Assembly: GCA_049720475.1 (NCBI GenBank)
Contig: JBNASH010000033.1
Location: 3,784-67,783 of the forward strand
Reading direction: 5' to 3'
Length of the DNA stretch: 64,000 bases
From: Minisyncoccia bacterium
GTDB taxonomy: Bacteria; Patescibacteriota; Minisyncoccia; UBA6257; JAAZHW01
The stretch's first letter is position 1. Each line of letters begins with the position of its first letter. The notes beneath the pieces were generated by a model that was given only the letters and a program-made list of their open reading frames with translations, was not told the origin of the DNA and made no database searches. The position numbers and the translations under genes are program-made. This document shows positions 1,664-43,139 of this stretch, in pieces.

Positions 1664-2227
1664 TTAGAATAAAGTCAGATCTGAACCAACTTCATAAAGA
1701 TCACTATTATTCCCACCGTCTTTGCTTTCTACATCACCGGAACCACCATTAGAATAATAATTAGATTCCATATTGGCGTCCAGTTCAAAAGTCGTAGAGG
1801 CTGTTTTTGTTCCGTAATAATAAACATAGGAGGTTGTTGCGGATGTAGATGTTGTATTTTTAGGATCAATTGGTAAGGAAGAAAGAGGAGAACCAGAAGA
1901 AATGGAAGTAAAATTGATCGGGATCCATCCGCCGGTAATCGCCTGGGTAGTAGTGCCAGTAACACTTGAGCAAAGTGTACCACTTGCTGGAGCGCCAACT
2001 TGACTAGCGTAACAAGATGGTACTGATGATCCCATACTTGGCGAACTAACATCGGAAACGTACAAGTTAATCGCTGTTCTTAAGGCATCTAAATCAGCAA
2101 TTCTTTTGGTATCGCGGGTTTTCTTTAACATTTCCGCTGGATTTAAAGTAACAACAATCACACTCATTAACACCGCCAAAATAGCAATAACAACCAATAA
2201 TTCAATTAAAGTAAAACCTTTTTTCAT
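1664..2227 (-). CDS. Type IV pilin / pseudopilin with a class III signal peptide.
   Basis: The N-terminus MKKGFTLIELLVVIAILAVLMSVIV is a prepilin peptidase cleavage motif (G-F-T-L-I-E). The Ser/Thr-rich C-terminal region has two Cys residues (disulfide loop). Confidence 0.85.
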   Translation of the reverse strand: MKKGFTLIELLVVIAILAVLMSVIVVTLNPAEMLKKTRDTKRIADLDALRTAINLYVSDVSSPSMGSSVPSCYASQVGAPASGTLCSSVTGTTTQAITGGWIPINFTSISSGSPLSSLPIDPKNTTSTSATTSYVYYYGTKTASTTFELDANMESNYYSNGGSGDVESKDGGNNSDLYEVGSDLTLF

Positions 2228-2349: not shown

Positions 2350-2931
2350 CTAATTTAAAATACTTAAATCCGAACCAATTTCATAAATTGTAGAGTTATT
2401 TCCACCATCTGTAGTTTCCAAAGAGGCATAGGCACTTGACTCTAAATTAGCATTTAATTCATAAGTTGTTAAGCTGCTTGAGGCGGCAAACACATAATAA
2501 TACCCTGAAGAAGTACTATTGGTTGGATCAATTGGCAATGCTGAAATTGGTGAGCGCAGAGTTAAAACACTAAAATTAATTGGTAGCCATCCTGTCGTAC
2601 CTATCGTCCGATAATTACTTAAAGCAGCACAATAAGCTGTTCGTCCACCATAAGAACCGCAGGTGCCAGCACTAGCTAATGGCACAGAAAGATAAGCATA
2701 GGTGGTGTAGCCGGAAAAATTATAATCCTCAGATAAATACAAATTTAATGCCGTTCTTAACGCCGCTAAATCAGAAAGTCTTCGTGAATCTCGAGATTTT
2801 TTTAACATTTCTGAAGGGTTTAAAGTAATTACAATCACACTCATTAACACCGCCAAAATAGCAATAACTATCAATAATTCAATCAAAGTAAAACCTTTTA
2901 AGGAGCTTTTCTGAATATTTTTCTTTGACAT
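2350..2931 (-). CDS. Type IV pilin / pseudopilin, a paralog of the adjacent pilin.
   Basis: LKGFTLIELLIVIAILAVLMSVIV is a class III signal peptide. There are two Cys residues in the C-terminal region. It is a tandem paralog of 1664..2227. Confidence 0.85.
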   Translation of the reverse strand: MSKKNIQKSSLKGFTLIELLIVIAILAVLMSVIVITLNPSEMLKKSRDSRRLSDLAALRTALNLYLSEDYNFSGYTTYAYLSVPLASAGTCGSYGGRTAYCAALSNYRTIGTTGWLPINFSVLTLRSPISALPIDPTNSTSSGYYYVFAASSSLTTYELNANLESSAYASLETTDGGNNSTIYEIGSDLSILN

Positions 2932-2971: not shown

Positions 2972-3361
2972 TTATTTTTTGCTTTTATTTAAAAATTCTT
3001 TAATTTTAAAAATTAAATCATCAATGGAAATTTTGGCTTTAACAAAATATTCAACCGCGCCCAATTGTTTGCCTTTTTGAATATCAGTTGTTTGTCCAAG
3101 ATTGGAAATAATAATTACTGGTTTGTTCCTTAAACTAGGATTTTTGGAAATGTTTTCTAAAACTTCAAAACCACTTTTCTTAGGCAAAATTAAATCTAAT
3201 AAAATTAAATCGGGTTCAATTTCATTTAATTTTTTTATCGCTTCATCACCATCCACAGCGGAAATAACCTCCATTTGTTCCTTTTGGAGACGCAATTTTA
3301 AAAGATTAGACAAAAAAGGATCATCTTCAATAACTAAAATTTTAGCCATTGTTTCTGCCAT
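2972..3361 (-). CDS. Stand-alone response regulator receiver domain (CheY-like).
   Basis: 129 aa with ILVIEDDP, the LLDLILP phospho-acceptor Asp, and a conserved T and K later in the domain. Confidence 0.8.
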   Translation of the reverse strand: MAETMAKILVIEDDPFLSNLLKLRLQKEQMEVISAVDGDEAIKKLNEIEPDLILLDLILPKKSGFEVLENISKNPSLRNKPVIIISNLGQTTDIQKGKQLGAVEYFVKAKISIDDLIFKIKEFLNKSKK

Positions 3362-3460: not shown

Positions 3461-3569
3461 GTTAAAAAATAAATCTCTTTTTCATTGTTTCGTGCCGCCC
3501 ATCGCTATTCTAAAAAGAATAGCGAACCGACCTAAGGACCTCATTCTCAGCGAGAATGAGCGTCATCCT

Positions 3570-5095
<1,526 letters not shown>

Positions 5096-5245
5096 AAAAA
5101 ATTTGATCTAACCCCATCCGATTATTATCGAATGGGACTAATACAACTCAAAGGACGACACGAAACAATGAAGAAAAAATTTATTTTTTGTTATTAATGT
5201 GCTAAAAACGAAAATGATAAATTTATTATCATTTTCGATAGATTT

Positions 5246-5273
5246 ATTTTATTCTTAATTTTTCTGATGTCAA
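5246..5273 (-). promoter_or_regulatory. Candidate rRNA promoter, about 150 nt upstream of the mature 16S 5' end.
   Basis: The minus strand reads TTGACA, a 16 nt spacer, then TAAAAT. It lies just downstream of the rpsI stop codon. Confidence 0.4.
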
Positions 5274-5281
5274 GAATAAAA

Positions 5282-5788
5282 TTAACGCTTAGACCATTGA
5301 GGAGCGCGGCGCGCTTTCTTTAATCCGTACTTCTTTCTTTCAACCATTCTTGCATCGCGAGTAAGAAATCCTACTCGACGCAATCGTTTCTTAAAATCTG
5401 GATTGAAAGCAACCATCGCTCTGGCAATTCCCATTCGCACAGCCTCCGCTTGAGCAGATAACCCTCCTCCTCTCACTATAGCCGTTAAACCAAATTTACC
5501 AGGACATTTCATTTTTTCAAACGGGGCTTCAATCATTGCCTGCAATTTTTTAAAGGGAAAATAAACTTTATAATCTTTTCCATTAATCAAAATTTCTTTA
5601 TTCCGGGTATAAAGTCGAACAATAGCAGTGGCTGTTTTTCTTGAGCCAACGCCTTCATAATAAACTTTCCCTTTGCGTCCTCTTTTTTCTTCTTTAGTTT
5701 CTTCCTCTTCAGAAGTTAAAACTTCGGGATTTTTTTCTTCCGATAATTTATTTTCTTTTTCTTCTGTAGTAATTTTTTTCCTAGGCAT
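5282..5788 (-). CDS. rpsI: 30S ribosomal protein S9 with an N-terminal Lys/Glu-rich extension of about 45 aa.
   Basis: The C-terminus is ...GGGLSAQAEAVRMGIARAM...RRAPQWSKR, which is canonical for S9. Confidence 0.9.
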   Translation of the reverse strand: MPRKKITTEEKENKLSEEKNPEVLTSEEEETKEEKRGRKGKVYYEGVGSRKTATAIVRLYTRNKEILINGKDYKVYFPFKKLQAMIEAPFEKMKCPGKFGLTAIVRGGGLSAQAEAVRMGIARAMVAFNPDFKKRLRRVGFLTRDARMVERKKYGLKKARRAPQWSKR

Positions 5789-6125
5789 ACATCTTTAAAT
5801 TTTTAATTCTTTTTGACCGCAAACTATTTTTAGGCAACATTCCTAAAACAGCTCTTTTTAAAACCTCCGTGGGATTCTTCTCAAAAACTTCCCTTAACTT
5901 TTTTTCTTTTAAATGACCCAGATACCCTGTATGATGTCTGTAAACTTTCTGATAAAATTTCTTTCCCGTAAATTTCATTTTTGAAACATTTTCGACGATG
6001 ACTTTAACATTTGCCACTTTGTTAGGCGCATAATCAGGATTATCTTTGCCTTGCAAAAGAACGGCTATTTTTGAAGCCAAACGTCCTAATGGTTGATTGG
6101 TAGCGTCAATTTTATATTCTCTCAT
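5781..6125 (-). CDS. rplM: 50S ribosomal protein L13.
   Basis: It has L13-like sequence, a conserved position upstream of rpsI, and an 8-nt overlap with rpsI. Confidence 0.85.
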   Translation of the reverse strand: MREYKIDATNQPLGRLASKIAVLLQGKDNPDYAPNKVANVKVIVENVSKMKFTGKKFYQKVYRHHTGYLGHLKEKKLREVFEKNPTEVLKRAVLGMLPKNSLRSKRIKNLKMYA

Positions 6126-6126
6126 A

Positions 6127-6483
6127 TTAATCCAAAATAAATTCGATTATTGCCATTGGAGCGCCATCGCGTTTCCGAGCGCGAGGACTTTTAATAATGC
6201 GTGTATAACCGCCACGGCGATTTTTCATTTTTGGAGCAATATTATAAAAAAGTTCTTTCGCGGCTGGCTCTCCAATTCGACTAATTAATAAACGATAAGA
6301 AGCAAGGGTTTGTTTTTTGGCTAAAGTTACTAATTTATCAACTAATCTTTTTAGTTCACGAGCTCGTGCTTCAGTAGTTTCGATTTTTTTAGACAAAACA
6401 AAATTATGAATTAAACTCTTCAAAAAGAGTTTGCGATCACCGCGTGTTCTTCCAAATTTTCTGCCTTTTTTTAAGTGACGCAT
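6127..6483 (-). CDS. rplQ: 50S ribosomal protein L17.
   Basis: MRHLKKGRKFGRTRGDRKLFLKSL... is L17-like. It sits directly downstream of rpoA, as in the alpha operon. Confidence 0.9.
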   Translation of the reverse strand: MRHLKKGRKFGRTRGDRKLFLKSLIHNFVLSKKIETTEARARELKRLVDKLVTLAKKQTLASYRLLISRIGEPAAKELFYNIAPKMKNRRGGYTRIIKSPRARKRDGAPMAIIEFILD

Positions 6484-6492
6484 AAGTTCGAA

Positions 6493-7281
6493 TTATTTTT
6501 TAGTTGCTTTAGTTTTTTTAGTTTTTTTGGTAGTTGCCTTCTCTTTCTCTTTTTCTTTTATTTCTTCTTTCGTCGCTTTTGTTGTTTCCTCAGGCACTTG
6601 AATATCGGCAACGATTTTAAAATGATCGACCAAAATATCAGCGGCTTGTTTTAGAGCCACACGTGGCAAAATGCTTCCATCGGTTTCAATATAAATTCTT
6701 AAACGGTTATAATCGGTTCTTTCTCCAACGCGCATATTTTCAACTTCGTAGTTCACTTTTTTAACGGGAGTAAAAATTGCATCTAAATTAATTGTTCCGA
6801 TTGGCAATTTTTCTTTCTGACGTGTTTCCGCCGGCGAATAACCAACACCTTCTTCAACGGTTAAAACCATTTCCAATTCTGATTTTTTATCTGTTAAAGT
6901 GGCAATATGTGTTTCGGGATTGATAATTTCAACATTTGAATTTTTGGCAATATCTCGAGCTGTTACCTCTCTTTCTCCTTTGGCAGATAAAGTTAAAGTA
7001 TGAGGGCCGGGGCTATAAACTTTTACTCTGATTTTTTTCAAATTAAGAATAATCTGAATAACATCTTCCAAAACACCTTCAATAGTAGAAAACTCATGAT
7101 GAACGCCTTTGATTTTAACGCTAGTAATGGCTGCACCTTTTAAAGAGGATAAAAGAACCCGACGTAAGGCATTCCCCAAAGTTAAACCATAACCAGTGTA
7201 TAAATTTTCAATTTCAAAAACGCCTTCGGTTTCTGTCTCTTTTATAATTTTTGGTTTTGTGGGTAAAATTAACCCTAACAT
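6493..7281 (-). CDS. rpoA: DNA-directed RNA polymerase alpha subunit with only the N-terminal domain. The C-terminal domain is replaced by a short K/E/T-rich tail.
   Basis: The alpha-NTD signature GNALRRVLLSS is present. The protein stops at 262 aa with the tail ...PEETTKATKEEIKEKEKEKATTKKTKKTKATKK. The next gene, rplQ, starts 10 nt later. Confidence 0.85.
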   Translation of the reverse strand: MLGLILPTKPKIIKETETEGVFEIENLYTGYGLTLGNALRRVLLSSLKGAAITSVKIKGVHHEFSTIEGVLEDVIQIILNLKKIRVKVYSPGPHTLTLSAKGEREVTARDIAKNSNVEIINPETHIATLTDKKSELEMVLTVEEGVGYSPAETRQKEKLPIGTINLDAIFTPVKKVNYEVENMRVGERTDYNRLRIYIETDGSILPRVALKQAADILVDHFKIVADIQVPEETTKATKEEIKEKEKEKATTKKTKKTKATKK

Positions 7282-7292
7282 ATTTTTATAAA

Positions 7293-7919
7293 TTAACGTG
7301 AATAAAATTCGACGATTTGTCTAAAATCAAATGGCGGCAATTGTTTTGCCAAGCTTGGCTCGGCAATAATTTTAGCTTCTAGTTTTTCTGGATCAAAACT
7401 TAGATAATCTGGTAGTTGAACTTTTTTAAGTTTTTTATCTAAATTCACAAAAGGAGCCTTGTTCTTACTTTCCGGCCGAATAGAAATTATATCACCCTTT
7501 TTCAATTCATAAGCGGGAACATCGATTTTCTTGCCATTAACCAAAATATGACCGTGACTTACCAGCTGGCGCGCGCCTCGTCGAGAAGAAGAAAAACCCA
7601 AACGATAAATAACATTGTCCAATCGCAATTCTAATTTTTTAAAGAAAATGTCACTGGTTGATTGGGGACTTTTACTTGCTTCTTTAAAGTATTTTTTCAT
7701 TTGAGCTTCATTAACACCGTAAGTAAGCTTAACCTTTCTTACCTCATTCAATTGTTTTCCATATTCAGAAGTGGCTTTTGTGACTTTTTTGCGATGCATA
7801 CCGGGCGCATAAGGCTTTCTAATTAAAGCGCATTTTATAGAATAGCAACGATCCCCTTTCAAAAAAAGTTTTTCCCCAACTCTACGACATTTTCGACATT
7901 TAGCATCTAAAATTGCCAT
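7293..7919 (-). CDS. rpsD: 30S ribosomal protein S4.
   Basis: MAILDAKCRKCRRVGEKLFLKGDRC is the S4 N-terminus. The ORF-track start at 7988 is an upstream extension, and the MAIL start is preferred. Confidence 0.9.
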   Translation of the reverse strand: MAILDAKCRKCRRVGEKLFLKGDRCYSIKCALIRKPYAPGMHRKKVTKATSEYGKQLNEVRKVKLTYGVNEAQMKKYFKEASKSPQSTSDIFFKKLELRLDNVIYRLGFSSSRRGARQLVSHGHILVNGKKIDVPAYELKKGDIISIRPESKNKAPFVNLDKKLKKVQLPDYLSFDPEKLEAKIIAEPSLAKQLPPFDFRQIVEFYSR

Positions 7920-7923
7920 AATT

Positions 7924-8382
7924 TTATACTCTCCGTGGTTTTGGCGGTCGACATCCGCCGTGTGGAACCGGAGTAATATCTTTAACACTAACGACGTTTA
8001 AATTTTGAGCAATAAAACTTCTTAAAGCGGCTTCCCTACCAGCACCTAATCCTTTGATATAAACATGAAACTCTGGAATAATTAATTTCTTGATTTTTTG
8101 AACAATCGATTCGGCAACTTTGGTAGCCGCAAAGGCAGTTGCTTTTTTGGGTCCTTTAAATTGTAAATGTCCAGCCGATGACCAAGCCAAAGTATTTCCC
8201 AAATGATCAGTCACGGTAATAATAATGTTATTATAAGAAGAGGAAATATAAATATTAGCAAATGGATAACTTCCTTTTTTGCCAACTTCTTTTGATTCAA
8301 CTTTTTTAAGCGCTGATTCCAGCGTCTCTTTTTCTTTTAAAACTTCATTTTCATCTTGAACAGCTACTCTTTTCTTCCCCAT
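7924..8382 (-). CDS. rpsK: 30S ribosomal protein S11.
   Basis: ...AWSSAGHLQFKGPKKATAFAA... together with its conserved operon position. Confidence 0.9.
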   Translation of the reverse strand: MGKKRVAVQDENEVLKEKETLESALKKVESKEVGKKGSYPFANIYISSSYNNIIITVTDHLGNTLAWSSAGHLQFKGPKKATAFAATKVAESIVQKIKKLIIPEFHVYIKGLGAGREAALRSFIAQNLNVVSVKDITPVPHGGCRPPKPRRV

Positions 8383-8383
8383 A

Positions 8384-8770
8384 TTATTTAAGTTCTAATT
8401 TTCTGCGACCGCTACCGACTGTCCGACGAACATTACCACGAATGGTTCGCGAATTAGTTTTTGTTCGTTGACCGCGCACCGGTAATTTTCTTAAGTGTCT
8501 TATACCACGATAACAATTAATATCTTTTAATCGGCGGATATTAGATTGAATCTCTCGTCTTAAATCACCTTCAATTTTATAATTCGTTTCAATTATATTT
8601 TGCAAACGATTAATTTCTTCGGTTGTTAAATCTTTGGCTTTTTTGTTTTGATTAATATTAGCCATATTTAAAACTTTTCTAGCCAAAGATTGCCCGATTC
8701 CATAAATATAGGATAGGCTAACAAAAATTGGTTTATTATCAGGGATATTTACATTACAAATACGTACCAT
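8384..8770 (-). CDS. rpsM: 30S ribosomal protein S13.
   Basis: MVRICNVNIPDNKPIFVSLSYIYGIGQSLA... Confidence 0.9.
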   Translation of the reverse strand: MVRICNVNIPDNKPIFVSLSYIYGIGQSLARKVLNMANINQNKKAKDLTTEEINRLQNIIETNYKIEGDLRREIQSNIRRLKDINCYRGIRHLRKLPVRGQRTKTNSRTIRGNVRRTVGSGRRKLELK

Positions 8771-8775
8771 ATTTT

Positions 8776-8892
8776 TTAACCTTGTCTTTGTTTATGTTTT
8801 GGATTTTTTTTACAAATAATAAAAACGCGGCCTTTGCGCCTTACTACTTTACAATCGCGACAAATTTTTTTAACCGACGCTCTTACCTTCAT
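8776..8892 (-). CDS. rpmJ: 50S ribosomal protein L36 (38 aa). It is below the ORF-track size cutoff.
   Basis: The minus strand encodes [38 protein letters not shown], between infA and rpsM. Confidence 0.8.
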
Positions 8893-8901
8893 AAGATTTT
8901 A

Positions 8902-9108
8902 TCATTTGCGATAGACAATACGTCCTCGCTTTTCATCATAAGGGCTTAGTTCAACCACTACCCTATCACCAACCATAATGCGGATAAAATTTAATCTTAA
9001 TTTACCTGATAAATGAGCTAAAACCTCTCTCCCATCATCCAGTTGGACTTTAAAAGTGGTACTGGGTAAGGCTTCGATCACTACGCCCTCAAATTGATTA
9101 TTCTTCAT
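8902..9108 (-). CDS. infA: Translation initiation factor IF-1.
   Basis: [58 protein letters not shown]... Confidence 0.9.
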
Positions 9109-9176: not shown

Positions 9177-10892
9177 CTAAATCGTTTTTTCATCAATTAA
9201 AACTTTGATTCTGTTGGGATTTAAAGGTGTAAACTTTAGGAATTTTGGCCAGATGTCTATTTCTACTTTATTGATAGTTTTATATTGCTTTAAAAATGAT
9301 TCGAGATTATTAACATTTTTTCCTGCCAAATTATTAATGAATTCAGATAAAGAAATTCTGTCACAGAAAACCAAATTAGCAGTAACAGGAAAAGATAAAA
9401 GTTTTTTATCAAAATCAAATCGAGCAGCGCCATAATTGAATTGATAACTAAATAATTCTTTATCCGATAATTGAGAATTGCTTTTTTGGGCTTCATTAAC
9501 AAACAATTTTTTAATATCTTCTTCATTAAATACCAAACTCTTCATCGTAATTTTAGCAGTAGCCTCAAATTGTTCTGCTTTTTCATCTAGTTTTGGATTG
9601 GTTGAAAAACTGACAATTGTAATTTGTTTCGCATCAGGCAAAACAATATCATTAGAAAGCAATTTACTCTTTAACTCTTCTTCCAAAGAAAGAGAAGCAA
9701 TTTCAATTAATTTACTTTTGGCTTGATTAATATCTGATTGACCAACTACTTTTGTTGTTCCTATATAACCACCGGTCATCGGCGAAAGAGATTCAGCATA
9801 AAATTTAGTATAGCGCGGCGTCCCTTCAAAACCAGGAATAGTAAAGGTTGTTGGGCCAATATTATAAGATTCGCCGGCTTGATCAGCGACAACTTCCGCA
9901 TCAATATAAGACGGAACAATTTTTCCATCCTGAATTTTAGCGCCGGGAATTGTTGTTTTGTTTACTAATCTAAAAAGTTTTCCTTCTTTTGATAAAAATC
10001 TTGTTGTTGCCACCAAAACCTGGGGTTCGGAGCTATAAGCATTATAAATTCTTATTGTACCCCTGGCTTTAGCTTGAATAGTTTTTATTTCGGTGGCAGG
10101 AAAGTTTTGAGTAATTGTACGGGAGAATTCAAAAAATTTTACAGGGATTTTAAAATTAGTTTGATCAATCTCGCTAATTCCAGCTGTTGCTAAAACTGGA
10201 ATTTGCTCGGACCAATTATATTTATTAGAAAAAATTCTTACTTCTGCTTTGGCAATAAAATAAATAAGGAAAAAAATGAGGAGAACAAAAACGAAAACGG
10301 AGGCTGACAAAATTTTGATGCCTTTTGTAATTTTAATTTTTGGCTTGAAAGATTTTTCTCTTTTTATTTCTGCTTCATCCAATTCAACGCCGCTGAAATC
10401 TGCTTCGTCAAAATAATCTGTAAAAAATTTTTTCTCAGTATTAATTTTACTCTCCTCACCTTTACCTTTTTTAACCTCAACTTTTTTGGGTTTTTCTGTT
10501 TCTATTTTTTGAATAATTTCTTTAATCTCTGGCAATTCTTCTTCTGATCTCACATCGATTTTCTTTTCAGTTTTTTTTCTTTTTGGTGGCTTAATATCAC
10601 CTAGAAAATTTTTTGTTTTTGGCTTAGGCCTGCTTATTTCTGCCATTTCAATTAATTTCATTCCTGCTTCTTTGGCCATAGCCACAATCTCCTCAACATC
10701 GCTACTAACAAAAAGTTTTTTATCAGCAGCAGCCGCTTCTCTTTTGATCAATTTGAAATTTAACAAAGAATCGGCGATTTTTGCGTTTTGCGGAATAATT
10801 AAAACAACGGTGTCGTTTTTAGAATTAATAATTTTTTCAACGACCTCAGAAACCGATTCAGTTATATCAACATAAATATTTTCTGCTTTCAT
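9177..10892 (-). CDS. Hypothetical bitopic membrane protein. It has an N-terminal cytoplasmic domain, a K/E-rich linker, one TM segment and a ~370 aa extracytoplasmic domain.
   Basis: 571 aa with a single strong TM segment ILSASVFVFVLLIFFLIYFIA near residue 190. No family was recognised. Confidence 0.5.
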   Translation of the reverse strand: MKAENIYVDITESVSEVVEKIINSKNDTVVLIIPQNAKIADSLLNFKLIKREAAAADKKLFVSSDVEEIVAMAKEAGMKLIEMAEISRPKPKTKNFLGDIKPPKRKKTEKKIDVRSEEELPEIKEIIQKIETEKPKKVEVKKGKGEESKINTEKKFFTDYFDEADFSGVELDEAEIKREKSFKPKIKITKGIKILSASVFVFVLLIFFLIYFIAKAEVRIFSNKYNWSEQIPVLATAGISEIDQTNFKIPVKFFEFSRTITQNFPATEIKTIQAKARGTIRIYNAYSSEPQVLVATTRFLSKEGKLFRLVNKTTIPGAKIQDGKIVPSYIDAEVVADQAGESYNIGPTTFTIPGFEGTPRYTKFYAESLSPMTGGYIGTTKVVGQSDINQAKSKLIEIASLSLEEELKSKLLSNDIVLPDAKQITIVSFSTNPKLDEKAEQFEATAKITMKSLVFNEEDIKKLFVNEAQKSNSQLSDKELFSYQFNYGAARFDFDKKLLSFPVTANLVFCDRISLSEFINNLAGKNVNNLESFLKQYKTINKVEIDIWPKFLKFTPLNPNRIKVLIDEKTI

Positions 10893-12157
10893 TTTTTATA
10901 ATTTTTTAATAAATTTTGATTTAACCATTTAATTCGACGTTTTAAAATTTTGTTCATTTCCTCATATTTAGGCTCTGACACAAAAGGATAAACTAAATTA
11001 GGTATAAGGTTAAAAGAGATATTTGCGGCTCTATTATCCTCTACTTCAATTTCCAAATCAGAAAGAAATCTTTCATTATCATAATAAATTATATTAACCG
11101 GCGTTTTAAAAATACTCACAGGCCAATGGTTTTTTTCAAAACTCTCTATTAAACCAGGAAAGTTTTTCAAAAGACCTATTAAATAAAAACCTTCGATTTT
11201 TTCTTTTGGCGATATTTCTTTAGCCGTTAAGTTCACGCCATCCAATAAAATTTTCAATTCCTTATCAAATAATTTTTTTAACCAATTACTTGCATTCTCG
11301 CTTAAATCACCATTCTCATATTTGTTTTTTATTTCTGTGGCGGTTGTCAAAGAAACAGAAAGGTTTTGAGAAATAGCGAGCAATAAATTCTTTTCTCCCC
11401 AATCAAAATATTTGGCTGTGTTTAAATAATCTGTTATCAATCCGGCGCTCGTAATCGTATAACCAATTTCGACAAGAATATTTTTCTCTATATTATTTAT
11501 TAAAGAAAAAGTTTTATCAAAAATCAAATTTTTTTCTCCGATAAAAAGCAGTTCGCCACCCCATTGCTCTAAAACATTCTTTACTGCTTCCCAAAAAAGG
11601 CAGTGCATGTAAACATTCTCAACACAAAAAGAAAATGTTTTGCCGGTAAAACCAAGAGGATTTAAAACTCTTTTATCATCAATGCGAGGATCGCTTAATT
11701 TTGAATGTGCCAAAACCACATCCCATTCAGAAATTTTCATTTTTTGTCCAACAAAAATACGCTCTTTATCATACAAACGCCAAATCAGATTTAAAATGAC
11801 ATTTTCCAATTCTTCGTGATCAATTGCGGTTAAAGGATTGTCCCTAACAACAGAAAGGCGCGTTTTCGTTGATTTAATAAACGGTTGTTCAAAACTGATA
11901 ATCGCTGGTGTTTTTTTGGAAATTTTTTTAATCTCTTTAGTTAAAATTTTCACCAAATCCTCTTCTCCAAATCCCTCATCATTATCACAAAAATAATTTT
12001 TGATTTTTTTAATTTTTATTTTCTTTTTTTCAAAATCTACCAACGCCAAAGCCGCAGCTATTTCTCTCATTCCTCCAAAAAAGCAAAAAACAGGTTTCCA
12101 ATTTTTATGAAATATTTTGAACATCGTAAATTTTCCTCTCTTTATAATTATAATCAA
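10889..12157 (-). CDS. Hypothetical protein, possibly a divergent actin-like ATPase (FtsA/PilM-like).
   Basis: VEIGYTITSAGLI resembles the phosphate-2 motif (hhDhGGGTT) of the actin/Hsp70 fold. LIGLLKNFPGLIESF resembles the adenosine motif. It overlaps the downstream gene by 4 nt. Confidence 0.3.
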   Translation of the reverse strand: MIIIIKRGKFTMFKIFHKNWKPVFCFFGGMREIAAALALVDFEKKKIKIKKIKNYFCDNDEGFGEEDLVKILTKEIKKISKKTPAIISFEQPFIKSTKTRLSVVRDNPLTAIDHEELENVILNLIWRLYDKERIFVGQKMKISEWDVVLAHSKLSDPRIDDKRVLNPLGFTGKTFSFCVENVYMHCLFWEAVKNVLEQWGGELLFIGEKNLIFDKTFSLINNIEKNILVEIGYTITSAGLITDYLNTAKYFDWGEKNLLLAISQNLSVSLTTATEIKNKYENGDLSENASNWLKKLFDKELKILLDGVNLTAKEISPKEKIEGFYLIGLLKNFPGLIESFEKNHWPVSIFKTPVNIIYYDNERFLSDLEIEVEDNRAANISFNLIPNLVYPFVSEPKYEEMNKILKRRIKWLNQNLLKNYKK

Positions 12158-12165
12158 TAAAGCCG

Positions 12166-13929
12166 CTATTCCAAAATCGCTTTAATCCGTCTGACGCCGC
12201 TTGAAACCGCTTCTTCTTTAATTATTTTAAAATGTCCTAGAATACCTGTATTTTGCACGTGGGGTCCACCACAAATTTCTTTTGAATAAGCTTTTGCTGG
12301 ATCACCAATAAAATAAACTTTGACTCGTTCGCCATATTTATCTTCAAAAAGTCCAACAGCACCAATTTCTTTCGCTCTACTTAAACTCATTTCTTCCATA
12401 TAAACCGGCAGGTTCTCTTGTATTTTCTGATTAACTATTTCTTCAACTTTCTTTAATTGCTCTGGGGTAGGCTTTCCCGAATAAGAATAATCAAAACGCA
12501 ACCGCTCTTCATTGATATGACTACCTCTTTGTTTAACTTCCTCACCTAAAACTTCTCTTAAAGCTTTATGCAATAAATGAGTGGCTGTGTGATACTTGAT
12601 AGCTTTTTCAGAATGTTCCGCTAATCCTCCTTTAAACATCCCAGCCGATGCCGTACGTGATAATTCTTGATGTTTTTTAAATTCCTGATTAAAACCATCC
12701 TCGTCAATTTTTACCCCTTTTTCCTTGGCTATCTCTTTAATTAATTCCAAAGGAAAACCATAACTTTGATACAAACCAAAAGCATCCGCGCCACTAATCT
12801 CATTTTTGTTTTGAATAATTTTTTCTAATATATTAAGACCTCTTTCCAGTGTTTTGGTAAATTTTTCTTCTTCGCGAACTAATTGTTCTTCGATAAAATC
12901 CTTATTTTCCTTGATCTCTGAGTAAAAATCGCCATAAATTTCTAAAACAGGGGCAAGTAGTTGAAAAGAAAAAGTTTTTTGAACGCCTAACAATCGCCCA
13001 AACCGAACCGCTCGACGAATTAACCTTCTTAAAATATATCCCCTTTCCACATTCGATGGTTCTAACTTTTCAGCCAGCAAAAAAATAGCTGCTTTTAAAT
13101 GATCGGCAATAATTCTAAATTCTCTTGCATATTCACTATATTTTTTGCCAGTAATTTCCTCGATTTTTTTAATCAATGGTTCAAAAAGCTCGGTTTCAAA
13201 AACTGTTGGCAAACCATTAATGGCAGCAAGCGTTCTTTCTAACCCCATTCCCGTATCAACATTTTTTTGTTTCAAAACTTCATAAGTACCATCGGCTTTG
13301 CGATTATAAGTCATAAAAACATTATTCCAAATTTCTACCCAGTTAGGATTTTTTGGGTCAAAATTTTTTGGCGCTGGCTCATTAGAAATCCAATAAAAAA
13401 TTTCTGAATCAGGACCACAGGGTCCGGTTTCACCAATCGGCCCCCACCAATTATCTTTTTTGCCCAAAAAAGCAATCCGCTCCGCCGGAATACCTGAGCG
13501 GCGCCAGATTTGATAAGATTCCTCATCTTTCGGCGCATCTTCATCGCCACCAAAACAAGTCACCGCCAACCGATTTTTATCTAATGCCAGCCATTGGGGC
13601 GAAGTTAAAAATTCCAGACTCCAACTAAGCGATTCTTCTTTAAAATAATCACCCAAAGACCAATTGCCTAACATTTCAAAAAAAGTTAAATGTGAAGCAT
13701 CGCCCACTTCTTCAATATCATCAGTTCTCAAACATTTTTGAACATCACACAATCGCTTGCCCGCTGGATGCTTTTCACCAAGCAAAAAAGGAATTAAAGG
13801 ATGCATCCCGGCCGTCGTAAAAAGAACACTTGGATCGTTTTCTGGAATTAAAGGAGCCGAGGGTAATCTTTTGTGTCCTCTTTCTTCAAAAAATTTTAAA
13901 AATTTTTCTCGCAATTCATTTCCTCTCAT
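12166..13929 (-). CDS. alaS: Alanyl-tRNA synthetase, compact form. It has the catalytic, tRNA-recognition and editing-core domains but no C-Ala domain.
   Basis: FTTAGM, THLTFFEMLGNWSLGDYFK and GPCGPDSEIFYW identify the catalytic core. HTATHLLH ... CGGPHV are the editing-domain zinc motifs. The protein is ~590 aa, against ~870 aa in E. coli. The ORF-track start at 13947 is 6 codons upstream. Confidence 0.85.
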   Translation of the reverse strand: MRGNELREKFLKFFEERGHKRLPSAPLIPENDPSVLFTTAGMHPLIPFLLGEKHPAGKRLCDVQKCLRTDDIEEVGDASHLTFFEMLGNWSLGDYFKEESLSWSLEFLTSPQWLALDKNRLAVTCFGGDEDAPKDEESYQIWRRSGIPAERIAFLGKKDNWWGPIGETGPCGPDSEIFYWISNEPAPKNFDPKNPNWVEIWNNVFMTYNRKADGTYEVLKQKNVDTGMGLERTLAAINGLPTVFETELFEPLIKKIEEITGKKYSEYAREFRIIADHLKAAIFLLAEKLEPSNVERGYILRRLIRRAVRFGRLLGVQKTFSFQLLAPVLEIYGDFYSEIKENKDFIEEQLVREEEKFTKTLERGLNILEKIIQNKNEISGADAFGLYQSYGFPLELIKEIAKEKGVKIDEDGFNQEFKKHQELSRTASAGMFKGGLAEHSEKAIKYHTATHLLHKALREVLGEEVKQRGSHINEERLRFDYSYSGKPTPEQLKKVEEIVNQKIQENLPVYMEEMSLSRAKEIGAVGLFEDKYGERVKVYFIGDPAKAYSKEICGGPHVQNTGILGHFKIIKEEAVSSGVRRIKAILE

Positions 13930-13957
13930 AATTTTTATTCTAATCATTTTTTTAAAA

Positions 13958-41699: not shown

Positions 41700-43139
41700 T
41701 TATTCTAATTCGAAGGTTTGGCCGCAATCCGGTATCTCAGTAACAACACCAAAATTATCTTTTACTTTTTGAGCCAATTCTTTGGATGCTTCCTCTTCGC
41801 CATGTACAACAAATAATTTTTTAAGTCGGAATCTTAATTCTTTTATCCAATCCAAAAGCATTCTTTGATCAGCATGGGCTGAATACCCCGTAATTTGCAT
41901 TACCTTACAATTAACATTAATCAATTCATTATGAATTTCAACTTGTTTTGCTCCTTCTAAAATTTTCCTTCCTAAGGAATTTTTTGCCTGGTAAGAAACA
42001 ATTAATAAAATGCTGTGGGGGTCAGAAAGATATCTTTTTTCATGATGCAAAATTCGGCCGCCTTCCGACGATCCAGAACCAGCCAAAATCACTTTGGGTG
42101 GCGGCACAGCATTAATTGCTTTTGATTCTTCTGTTGTTAAAGTAAAAGTTAGACCCGGAAACTCAAATAATCCGCGGCCATTGCCCACAAATTTAAAAGC
42201 CTCAATTTTGATATATTCGAGATATTTTTGATAAACAGCAGTTAATTTCCCGGCTAAAGGACTATCCATAAAAATCGGTACCAAAGGAACGCGATGGTGA
42301 ACAACTAACTCATTTAACTCCACTAAAATTTCTTGTGTTCTTTCTAACGCTAAAACAGGAATCATCAACACTCCTCTATTTCGTATCACTTCTTCAATAG
42401 CATCTTCTAATAAATCTTTTCTAATCTCAGCATCTTCGTGAATTTTATTGCCATAAGTTGATTCGACTATGCAGTAATCTGCTTCCTCGCTAATAACATC
42501 AGTATCAGGCAATAAAATATTAAATGAATTTCCTAAATCTCCAGAAAATAAAATTTTTACTTCCTTTTCGGGTTTTTTTATTTTTAATAAAACAATTGCT
42601 GACCCCAAAATATGACCGGCATTATAAAAAATAAAAGAAATGCGTGGCGAAATTTTAACCTCTTGATAGTATTTTTGAGGACTAAACAGTTTTAAAGTTT
42701 CTTGCATATCATTCTCGTCATACAACAAAGGCAATCCTTGTTTTTCTGCTGCTTCTTTCATTAAATTAAAAGCATCTTCCCACAAAATAGAACAACAATC
42801 TATTGTTGGCGGCGTAGCATAAATTTTTCCTCGAAAACCATTTTTATACAACAAAGGAGCTAAACCGCTATGATCAATATGGGCATGAGTTAAGATAACG
42901 GCCTTTAATTCTTTTGGGTCAAAAGGTAATGGTTCATAATTTCTTTCGTTTCTTATATCGCGATAAATTCCGCAGTCAATTAAAACTTTTTCATTTTTAT
43001 ATTCAACTAAAAAGCGGCTTCCTTCTACTTCTTTCGCAGCGCCATAAAAAGAAATTTTAATTTTGTTATTGGTTTTTTTGCGATTAATTTGGCTATTTTT
43101 AGAATTTTTCTTTGGTTGTTTATTAATCTTCTTTGGCAC
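41700..43139 (-). CDS. Metallo-beta-lactamase / beta-CASP family nuclease (RNase J-like or Artemis/SNM1-like) with a Lys-rich N-terminal tail.
   Basis: HAHIDHSG motif 2, with a beta-CASP arrangement after the MBL core. Confidence 0.65.
   Translation of the reverse strand: MPKKINKQPKKNSKNSQINRKKTNNKIKISFYGAAKEVEGSRFLVEYKNEKVLIDCGIYRDIRNERNYEPLPFDPKELKAVILTHAHIDHSGLAPLLYKNGFRGKIYATPPTIDCCSILWEDAFNLMKEAAEKQGLPLLYDENDMQETLKLFSPQKYYQEVKISPRISFIFYNAGHILGSAIVLLKIKKPEKEVKILFSGDLGNSFNILLPDTDVISEEADYCIVESTYGNKIHEDAEIRKDLLEDAIEEVIRNRGVLMIPVLALERTQEILVELNELVVHHRVPLVPIFMDSPLAGKLTAVYQKYLEYIKIEAFKFVGNGRGLFEFPGLTFTLTTEESKAINAVPPPKVILAGSGSSEGGRILHHEKRYLSDPHSILLIVSYQAKNSLGRKILEGAKQVEIHNELINVNCKVMQITGYSAHADQRMLLDWIKELRFRLKKLFVVHGEEEASKELAQKVKDNFGVVTEIPDCGQTFELE

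Follow-up and report, generated by a model that had tools for sequence, protein, structure and literature searches.

In the alpha subunit of bacterial RNA polymerase (RNAP), the N-terminal domain (NTD) suffices for assembly of the enzyme and for basal transcription, as studied in Escherichia coli and Bacillus subtilis, and the C-terminal domain (CTD) binds UP elements and serves as a docking platform for activators, those of class I and many of class II. To our knowledge, textbooks treat the CTD as a universal part of bacterial RNAP. A 2025 study of its evolution likewise calls the domain ubiquitously present across Bacteria (PMC12531629). Here we describe an alpha subunit gene, rpoA, that ends before the CTD, found in a stretch of 64,000 nucleotides from a Minisyncoccia bacterium (contig JBNASH010000033.1, positions 3,784 to 67,783; henceforth the window), and we compare it with the alpha subunits of its relatives.

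CTD-less alpha subunits have been described for Hodgkinia, Tremblaya and the chloroplasts of Euglena (PMC8321222). A single sentence in the same paper states that the domain is also lost in Parcubacteria and cites Nelson & Stegen 2015; the main text of the latter makes no mention of the polymerase and its supplement merely lists rpoA as a core gene. The statement is thus unsupported by its citation, and bare loss of the domain in Parcubacteria is not new but essentially undocumented. The searchable literature yielded no other relevant statement on CTD-less alpha in Patescibacteria, the candidate phyla radiation (CPR) or Parcubacteria, and none on the features reported below: the restriction to sub-clades, the probable repeated loss, the design of an acidic linker with a lysine-rich tail, and the alternative appendages. 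Like the alpha proteins of endosymbionts and the Euglena plastid, the protein of the window has been cut down to its NTD and belongs to a small genome. In contrast to these, it comes from environmental CPR bacteria, its NTD is fully intact, the loss is confined to some clades of Parcubacteria and there is a conserved basic tail, a feature that the accessible text of PMC8321222 does not describe for the endosymbiont and plastid proteins.

The second comparison is with engineered truncations, the truncated alpha of E. coli and RpoA-del of B. subtilis (PMC4495994), which also have the NTD without the CTD and which assemble, bind DNA and elongate. B. subtilis continues to grow when truncated alpha replaces alpha, with a doubling time of 1.9 h versus 1.0 h and reduced expression of genes for ribosome synthesis and for the use of secondary carbon sources (PMC4495994); because these cells grow, a CTD-less polymerase is viable in principle. 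However, these are laboratory constructs in cells with CTD-dependent promoters and activators, whereas the truncation described here is natural, fixed in clades and accompanied by a lysine-rich tail.

The rpoA of the window starts with ATG, lies on the minus strand and encodes 262 amino acids according to the list of open reading frames (ORFs); canonical RpoA of E. coli and B. subtilis has about 314-329. Two rpoA equivalog models are passed, TIGR02027 with a score of 272.8 (cut-off 227.8) and NF003519 with 298.3 (cut-off 277). Six of the eight NCBIfam rpoA models fail to reach their cut-offs, since nothing in the protein matches the C-terminal third of these sub-models: NCBIfam rpoA models align over the first ~250 of their 298-340 positions only. 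Pfam identifies PF01193 at residues 29-221 (E-value 1e-23), interrupted by PF01000 at residues 55-171 (E-value 6e-34, full profile, positions 1-119), and detects no further domain in the protein. The best solved relative is the B. subtilis alpha subunit (PDB 6wvj), aligned over residues 15-247 of 314 with an E-value of 4e-62; the NTD is homologous to that of canonical RpoA over its whole length. The motif GNALRRVLLSS is present and its GNALRR part belongs to the 34 NTD positions that are invariant in 40 homologues. A model built with AlphaFold2 from an alignment of 40 sequences has a mean predicted local distance difference test score (pLDDT) of 81.6, with most 10-residue blocks of the NTD between 85 and 94, and places the last NTD helix at residues 206-225. 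The NTD is intact, and both dimerisation and assembly of alpha2-beta-beta' should persist. Archaeal subunit D and eukaryotic Rpb3/AC40 share the PF01193 and PF01000 fold and also have no alpha-CTD, but the protein of the window is clearly a bacterial RpoA: the model for subunit D scores 29 bits, with a cut-off of 153.

What is missing is the roughly 70-residue helix-hairpin-helix CTD (PF03118) of canonical RpoA, replaced by a lysine-rich end of 14 residues. PF03118 has no match in the protein, even at an E-value of up to 1. A profile hidden Markov model (HMM) representing the CTDs of 12 full-length alphas from relatives was run against every stop-to-stop segment of the 64 kb in all six frames; it found nothing (best E-value 1.2, 5.6 bits), and thus there is neither a frameshifted remnant behind rpoA nor a separate CTD ORF in the window. 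The ATG of rplQ at position 6483 is the tenth nucleotide after the rpoA stop codon, and the intervening spacer of 9 nt has no room for a CTD.

Errors of sequencing or assembly, namely a frameshift, a premature stop or a chimeric join, can truncate a normal rpoA, and databases do contain such cases, for example a split rpoA (P0154), an error-ridden contig (P0168) and several frameshifted representatives. For the window, we consider an artefact of this kind to have a negligible chance of being the explanation: the short spacer runs straight into an intact rplQ, no frame holds CTD-like sequence, and more than 100 independent sequences from NCBI, JGI, ENA and Logan share the architecture. When a database of 5.8 billion proteins was searched for the closest relatives, 108 of the 120 closest proteins (61-100% identity) were 244-291 amino acids long and had no PF03118, in a list that is biased towards CTD-less forms; their source names include Candidatus Paceibacterota, Parcubacteria group, Candidatus Wolfebacteria and Patescibacteria group. 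Among the 80 GTDB loci that were retrieved, four species representatives lack the CTD (L001, L002, L013, which is one of the Brennerbacteria, and L060; their assemblies contain the contigs JAAZHW010000037, DAOSMC010000003, JACPKE010000033 and JAKJED010000007), and in all four loci rplQ begins between -4 and +7 nt past the rpoA stop codon. In total, 112 orthologues are built like the protein of the window. Since the same architecture recurs in more than 100 independent orthologues, sequencing error can be dismissed, and the absence of the CTD from this complete gene is confirmed. A first-pass annotation of the stretch, made before any database search, had described an RpoA of only 262 residues with a complete NTD, without a CTD, and with rplQ 10 nt past the stop codon and no coding space in between; every one of these statements holds, and the strand, which it had left unsaid, is minus. 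It had also proposed an alignment with related RpoA proteins, which proved to share the CTD-less build, and had named a corrected frameshift as the finding that would overturn its view; the six-frame scan of the window revealed no such remnant.

The same annotation had suggested a genome-wide search for a stand-alone CTD gene. Our scan answers this for the 64-kb window, where there is none, and the protein database provides an indirect answer. Our view of the genome being 64 kb, a separately encoded CTD may lie elsewhere, and the gene could in principle be split, with the CTD produced as a small protein that acts in trans. Free-standing genes with PF03118 as sole domain do exist in metagenomes: a search of the 5.8-billion-protein database with a profile of the CPR CTD core returned 50 short PF03118-only proteins, seven of which were inspected. 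Four of these were rejected as rpoA fragments: P0141 and P0140 directly precede rplQ at the ends of their contigs, P0168 belongs to the error-ridden contig, and P0154 derives from the split or frameshifted rpoA, which consists of an NTD ORF of 218 amino acids and a CTD ORF of 99 amino acids that overlap by 4 nt directly before rplQ (L083 2397-3349). Either a frameshift error or a true division of alpha into two genes could account for the last. The remaining three, P0164 (L088 115-324), P0167 (L084 1905-2138) and P0170 (L086 1491-1790), are truly free-standing alpha-CTD-like genes of 69-99 amino acids, two of them next to sigma-70-like genes. They sit on short contigs in phage-like settings, although the contigs of P0164 and P0170 merely look phage-like: P0164 adjoins a Sigma70_r2 gene, P0167 a Sigma70_r4 gene and a SNF2-type helicase, and P0170 is found among small ORFs without Pfam matches. 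P0167 matches small proteins from phages of Microbacterium, Listeria, Staphylococcus, Enterococcus and Bacillus, and the three Microbacterium phage matches listed are annotated as 'DNA binding protein'. The free-standing CTD-like proteins may come from phages and mimic, or compete with, the alpha-CTD of the host.

None of the seven inspected proteins supports a trans-encoded CTD in CTD-less CPR bacteria. The short PF03118-only proteins that are closest to CPR CTDs are the fragments from contig edges or frameshifts just before rplQ, and the truly free-standing ones are divergent. In 80 related loci, each with up to 3 kb on either side, CTD matches fall solely within rpoA. Moreover, a CTD in trans would be without the linker that tethers it and gives the domain its function. 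Together with the negative scan of the window, this makes a split alpha subunit a very improbable explanation.

The sequence past about residue 226 of the protein is IQVPEETTKATKEEIKEKEKEKATTKKTKKTKATKK. The first-pass annotation had described it as a K/E/T low-complexity tail of 35 residues; a tail is there, but mere low complexity does not do it justice, as it has an acidic-then-basic layout that is shared by 108 of 112 orthologues. The proximal part corresponds to the acidic, flexible inter-domain linker that also follows the NTD in canonical RpoA, and the distal lysine-rich part starts where the CTD would begin. A structure model of the tail, which the annotation had likewise proposed, gives pLDDT values below 50 for residues 233-262, and these residues are thus predicted to be disordered. 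With a net charge of +8 in its last 15 residues, the protein has the most basic C-terminus among 62 window ORFs that were checked, and no other of these ORFs ends in a low-complexity lysine run.

In the 112 CTD-less orthologues the tail is 18-70 amino acids long (median 34). Its first half has a mean net charge of -2.3 and 29% Glu; the inter-domain linker of 88 CTD-bearing relatives has a mean net charge of -4.8. The second half has a mean net charge of +7.4 and 52% Lys, compared with 9.5% Lys in the proteins of the window. The last 15 residues carry a net charge of at least +4 in 108 of the 112, whereas the 88 CTD-bearing relatives have a mean of +1.2 and a maximum of +4. Tail identity is only 32-53% where NTD identity is 63-86%, indicating that composition has been kept rather than sequence. 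The tail is the old acidic linker plus a new lysine-rich end at the former start of the CTD, and this layout is conserved in composition.

Lysine-rich or AT-hook tails are known from several bacterial DNA-binding proteins: Chlamydia Hc1, mycobacterial HupB and myxobacterial CarD, with an HMGA-like or H1-like C-terminus. The tail of the window shares with them a disordered, strongly positive C-terminal stretch rich in K, T, A and P. It differs in that it has neither the RGRP core that defines an AT-hook (PF02178) nor a regular SPKK or AKKA repeat, and it is much shorter, with about 15 basic-rich residues.

Charged extensions are a general habit of this genome, which bears on how the RpoA tail is to be judged. 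K/E-rich low-complexity extensions are also found at the N-termini of RpsI (about 45 amino acids; 5282..5788, minus strand), RpsK (about 30 amino acids; 7924..8382, minus strand) and a 479-residue protein (41700..43139, minus strand; about 30 amino acids). The window is AT-rich, with a GC content of about 30-36% outside the rRNA gene.

A CTD-less alpha is typical of the lineage of the window organism (Paceibacteria, Parcubacteria/OD1, CPR). As a lineage trait, the loss belongs to some sub-clades of Paceibacteria/Parcubacteria, neither to all Parcubacteria nor to this genome alone: 76 of the 80 GTDB relatives that were retrieved have kept the CTD, among them loci of Kaiser-, Sung-, Taylor-, Yonath-, Portnoy-, Nomura-, Niyogi- and Tagabacteria, Paceibacter sp. 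and Minisyncoccia. As the 80 loci were picked by peptide patterns and E-value, the fraction of four in 80 is no estimate of prevalence. An exhaustive phmmer search of 1.84 billion cluster representatives at 50% identity gave a less redundant picture for the best 150: 98 carry the CTD, about a dozen of the others are obvious products of frameshifts, chimeras or fragments, and complete CTD-less alphas with a basic end make up about 25 separate clusters. One CTD-less bacterial-type RpoA with a very basic tail (P0055) is labelled 'Thermoplasmata archaeon' at NCBI, where a Patescibacteria contig has probably been misbinned or given the wrong taxonomy.

When a neighbour-joining (NJ) tree is constructed from 217 NTD columns of 200 sequences (112 CTD-less, 88 with CTD), the CTD-less proteins form three large groups of 43, 54 and 12 sequences and three singletons. 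The group of 43 includes the protein of the window, the group of 54 includes the types of Wolfebacteria and Brennerbacteria, and the group of 12 is characterised by extremely basic tails. Each CTD-less clade carries a basic tail. Fitch parsimony requires five changes of the CTD state on this tree, three to eight and never fewer than three in 100 bootstrap NJ trees, and about 65 when the states are shuffled. These data suggest that the CTD was lost repeatedly.

Taking all data together, we hold it probable, though by no means certain, that this is a genuine and functional CPR rpoA from which the CTD was cleanly deleted in the lineage and whose basic tail may contact upstream DNA. The remaining NTD, judged by homology, would still dimerise and nucleate the alpha2-beta-beta' assembly. 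The enzyme is inferred to be unable to use an alpha-CTD for UP elements or class I activators: UP-element reading through alpha would be lost, and activators that touch the alpha-CTD could not recruit the polymerase. The first-pass annotation had drawn this conclusion for UP elements and class I activators too, and it is a reasonable one given what is known of the alpha-CTD. Promoters would then be chosen by sigma, together with whatever factors touch sigma, beta or beta', as expected from work on E. coli and B. subtilis. The ancestral acidic linker would remain, capped by about 15 disordered lysine-rich residues, and on this flexible linker the basic end could touch DNA upstream of the -35 element by electrostatic attraction, irrespective of sequence, and so stand in, in minimal form, for the non-specific contacts that the alpha-CTD makes with upstream DNA. 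This last step, the replacement of the sequence-independent part of the alpha-CTD role by electrostatic contacts of the lysine-rich end, we propose only tentatively, because it is derived from the conserved composition of the tail, that is, its charge and position.

The most serious competitor is that the CTD was lost during genome streamlining and never replaced, the K/E/T tail being a neutral remnant of the linker extended by A-rich drift or codon bias; the polymerase would then manage with nothing but its sigma contacts, the assumption made for Hodgkinia and Tremblaya. Several observations fit this: other proteins of the window bear K/E-rich extensions or look trimmed (for example the alanyl-tRNA synthetase, AlaRS, with 593 amino acids), and for the endosymbionts, which have lost the CTD too, the accessible text of PMC8321222 describes no replacement. 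Yet 108 of 112 orthologues, from about three clades, have retained the basic end despite poor sequence conservation, the tail keeps a length of 18-70 amino acids even though AAA and AAG codons are one substitution away from a stop codon, and none of the other window ORFs checked ends in this way. We therefore regard neutral loss as unlikely, albeit as an explanation to be taken seriously.

Some points weigh against a functional tail and its repeated acquisition. The contact between tail and DNA is deduced from sequence. Lysine-rich extensions are common in this AT-rich genome and the composition of the tail could partly reflect mutational bias. Purely acidic tails are present on complete CTD-less alphas that are directly followed by rplQ (P0249, from two independent assemblies, and P0185), and therefore a basic end is not obligatory; these proteins are also what neutral loss would predict. 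The inference of multiple losses stands on the 217-column NJ tree of a single protein, which is weak evidence. Finally, the matches of relatives to AT_hook and SAP that are described next do not reach the Pfam cut-offs, and for SAP there is just one contig.

Relatives have other C-termini in place of the CTD. Two CTD-less proteins among the best 150 clusters, P0189 and P0279 (MBU4455078.1, Patescibacteria group bacterium), end in KRGRPKK, a motif that resembles the core of an AT-hook; with 13.1 bits for P0189 against a Pfam cut-off of 17.4, AT_hook membership was rejected and we speak of resemblance only. In P0276 (332 amino acids; L089 641-1639), also among these 150, two copies of the motif WLKD.L.EYAE....V(K)......IL.K replace the CTD. 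The gene lies in the context rpsD-rpoA-rplQ-rplM-rpsI on one contig of 2964 bp. Its repeats have sub-threshold Pfam matches to SAP_new25, Ish1 and Rho_N, which are helix-extended-helix (HeH) nucleic-acid-binding motifs, and a sequence match of P0276 in the PDB was not found; an assignment as SAP/HeH-like repeats was thus not made and is kept as a lead.

A wider idea, which we consider somewhat doubtful, is that the CTD was replaced repeatedly and independently in several Patescibacteria lineages by minimal nucleic-acid-binding appendages: mostly lysine-rich disordered tails, some AT-hook-like ends and at least one SAP/HeH-like repeat. Tethering to upstream DNA would have been kept in a sequence-independent form and the docking of activators abandoned. 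If true, this would be a natural experiment that separates the two functions of the alpha-CTD.

An alpha-CTD is missing from entire clades of a bacterial radiation that is both very large and abundant, and therefore rRNA promoters and other strong promoters of these organisms must be highly active without UP-element reading. The few regulators of CTD-less CPR bacteria must act through sigma, beta, beta' or by repression. The loss fits the small regulatory repertoire of the CPR and makes available, for structural and synthetic studies, a minimal bacterial RNAP of natural origin. If the lysine-rich tail does bind DNA, about 15 disordered residues can supply the non-specific tether function of the alpha-CTD. 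In practice, CTD-less proteins will be under-scored wherever annotation pipelines or marker-gene models assume an RpoA of full length.

The gene is found in an alpha operon of standard layout on the minus strand, infA-rpmJ-rpsM-rpsK-rpsD-rpoA-rplQ-rplM-rpsI (Table 1), and shares the rpsM-rpsK-rpsD-rpoA-rplQ context with canonical rpoA. The order rpsD-rpoA-rplQ, the operon position expected of a bacterial RpoA, is the same in related loci, which also match the order rplM-rpsI after rplQ. The listed ORF of rpsD starts further upstream, with a GTG at 7988, and overlaps rpsK.

Table 1. Features of the rpoA locus, with positions in the window
Feature	Position	Strand	Evidence and remarks
16S rRNA gene	3569..5099	-	directly downstream of rplM-rpsI
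rpsI	5282..5788	-	ORF translation; downstream of rplM
rplM	5781..6125	-	ORF translation; downstream of rplQ
rplQ (ribosomal protein L17, 118 aa)	6127..6483	-	PF01196, E-value 6e-28, profile positions 2-97 of 97
Spacer between rpoA stop and rplQ start	6484..6492	-	9 nt, TTCGAACTT; no room for a CTD
rpoA coding sequence	6493..7281	-	262 aa plus TAA stop at 6493..6495; TIGR02027 and NF003519 above cut-offs; match to PDB alpha, E-value 4e-62
Distal lysine-rich end, aa 249-262, ATTKKTKKTKATKK	6496..6537	-	predicted to be disordered; at the former start of the CTD
Proximal tail, about aa 227-248, IQVPEETTKATKEEIKEKEKEK	6538..6603	-	mixed to acidic; corresponds in the alignment to the inter-domain linker of CTD-bearing relatives
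alpha-NTD, about aa 1-226 (dimerisation, beta/beta' assembly; PF01193 with PF01000 insert)	6604..7281	-	Pfam; AlphaFold2
rpsD (S4)	7293..7919	-	PF00163 and PF01479; likely start ATG at 7919
rpsK	7924..8382	-	ORF translation
rpsM	8384..8770	-	ORF translation
rpmJ	8776..8892	-	ORF translation
infA	8902..9108	-	ORF translation

The operon is followed by the 16S rRNA gene. In the 3.5 kb beyond it no 23S or 5S genes were detected and the rRNA genes are thus unlinked. Directly past the rpsI stop codon and before the 16S gene lies a promoter-like sequence, TTGACA-16-TAAAAT (5273..5246, minus strand), followed by a hairpin and then a T-run (5237..5209). Its positions -40 to -60 are the end of the rpsI coding sequence and contain no UP-like element with a full A/T tract; we do not use this as evidence, as one promoter, in a genome of about 33% GC, is no more than an anecdote.

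Upstream of the operon, alaS encodes an AlaRS of 593 amino acids (12166..13947, minus strand) with the domains tRNA-synt_2c and tRNA_SAD and no match to a further C-terminal domain. The AlaRS of model bacteria is roughly 270 amino acids longer, and a relative on L090 has 615 amino acids; the short AlaRS is another example of domain trimming in the lineage. The genes secY, adk and map usually precede infA. Two ORFs without a Pfam match are located between alaS and infA, encoding 571 (9177..10892, minus strand) and 422 amino acids (10889..12157, minus strand). Near the start of the window, the neighbouring minus-strand genes 1664..2227, 2350..2931 and 2972..3361 comprise two type IV pilin-like genes with an N-terminal methylation motif and, next to them, a gene for a stand-alone response-regulator receiver protein of 129 amino acids.

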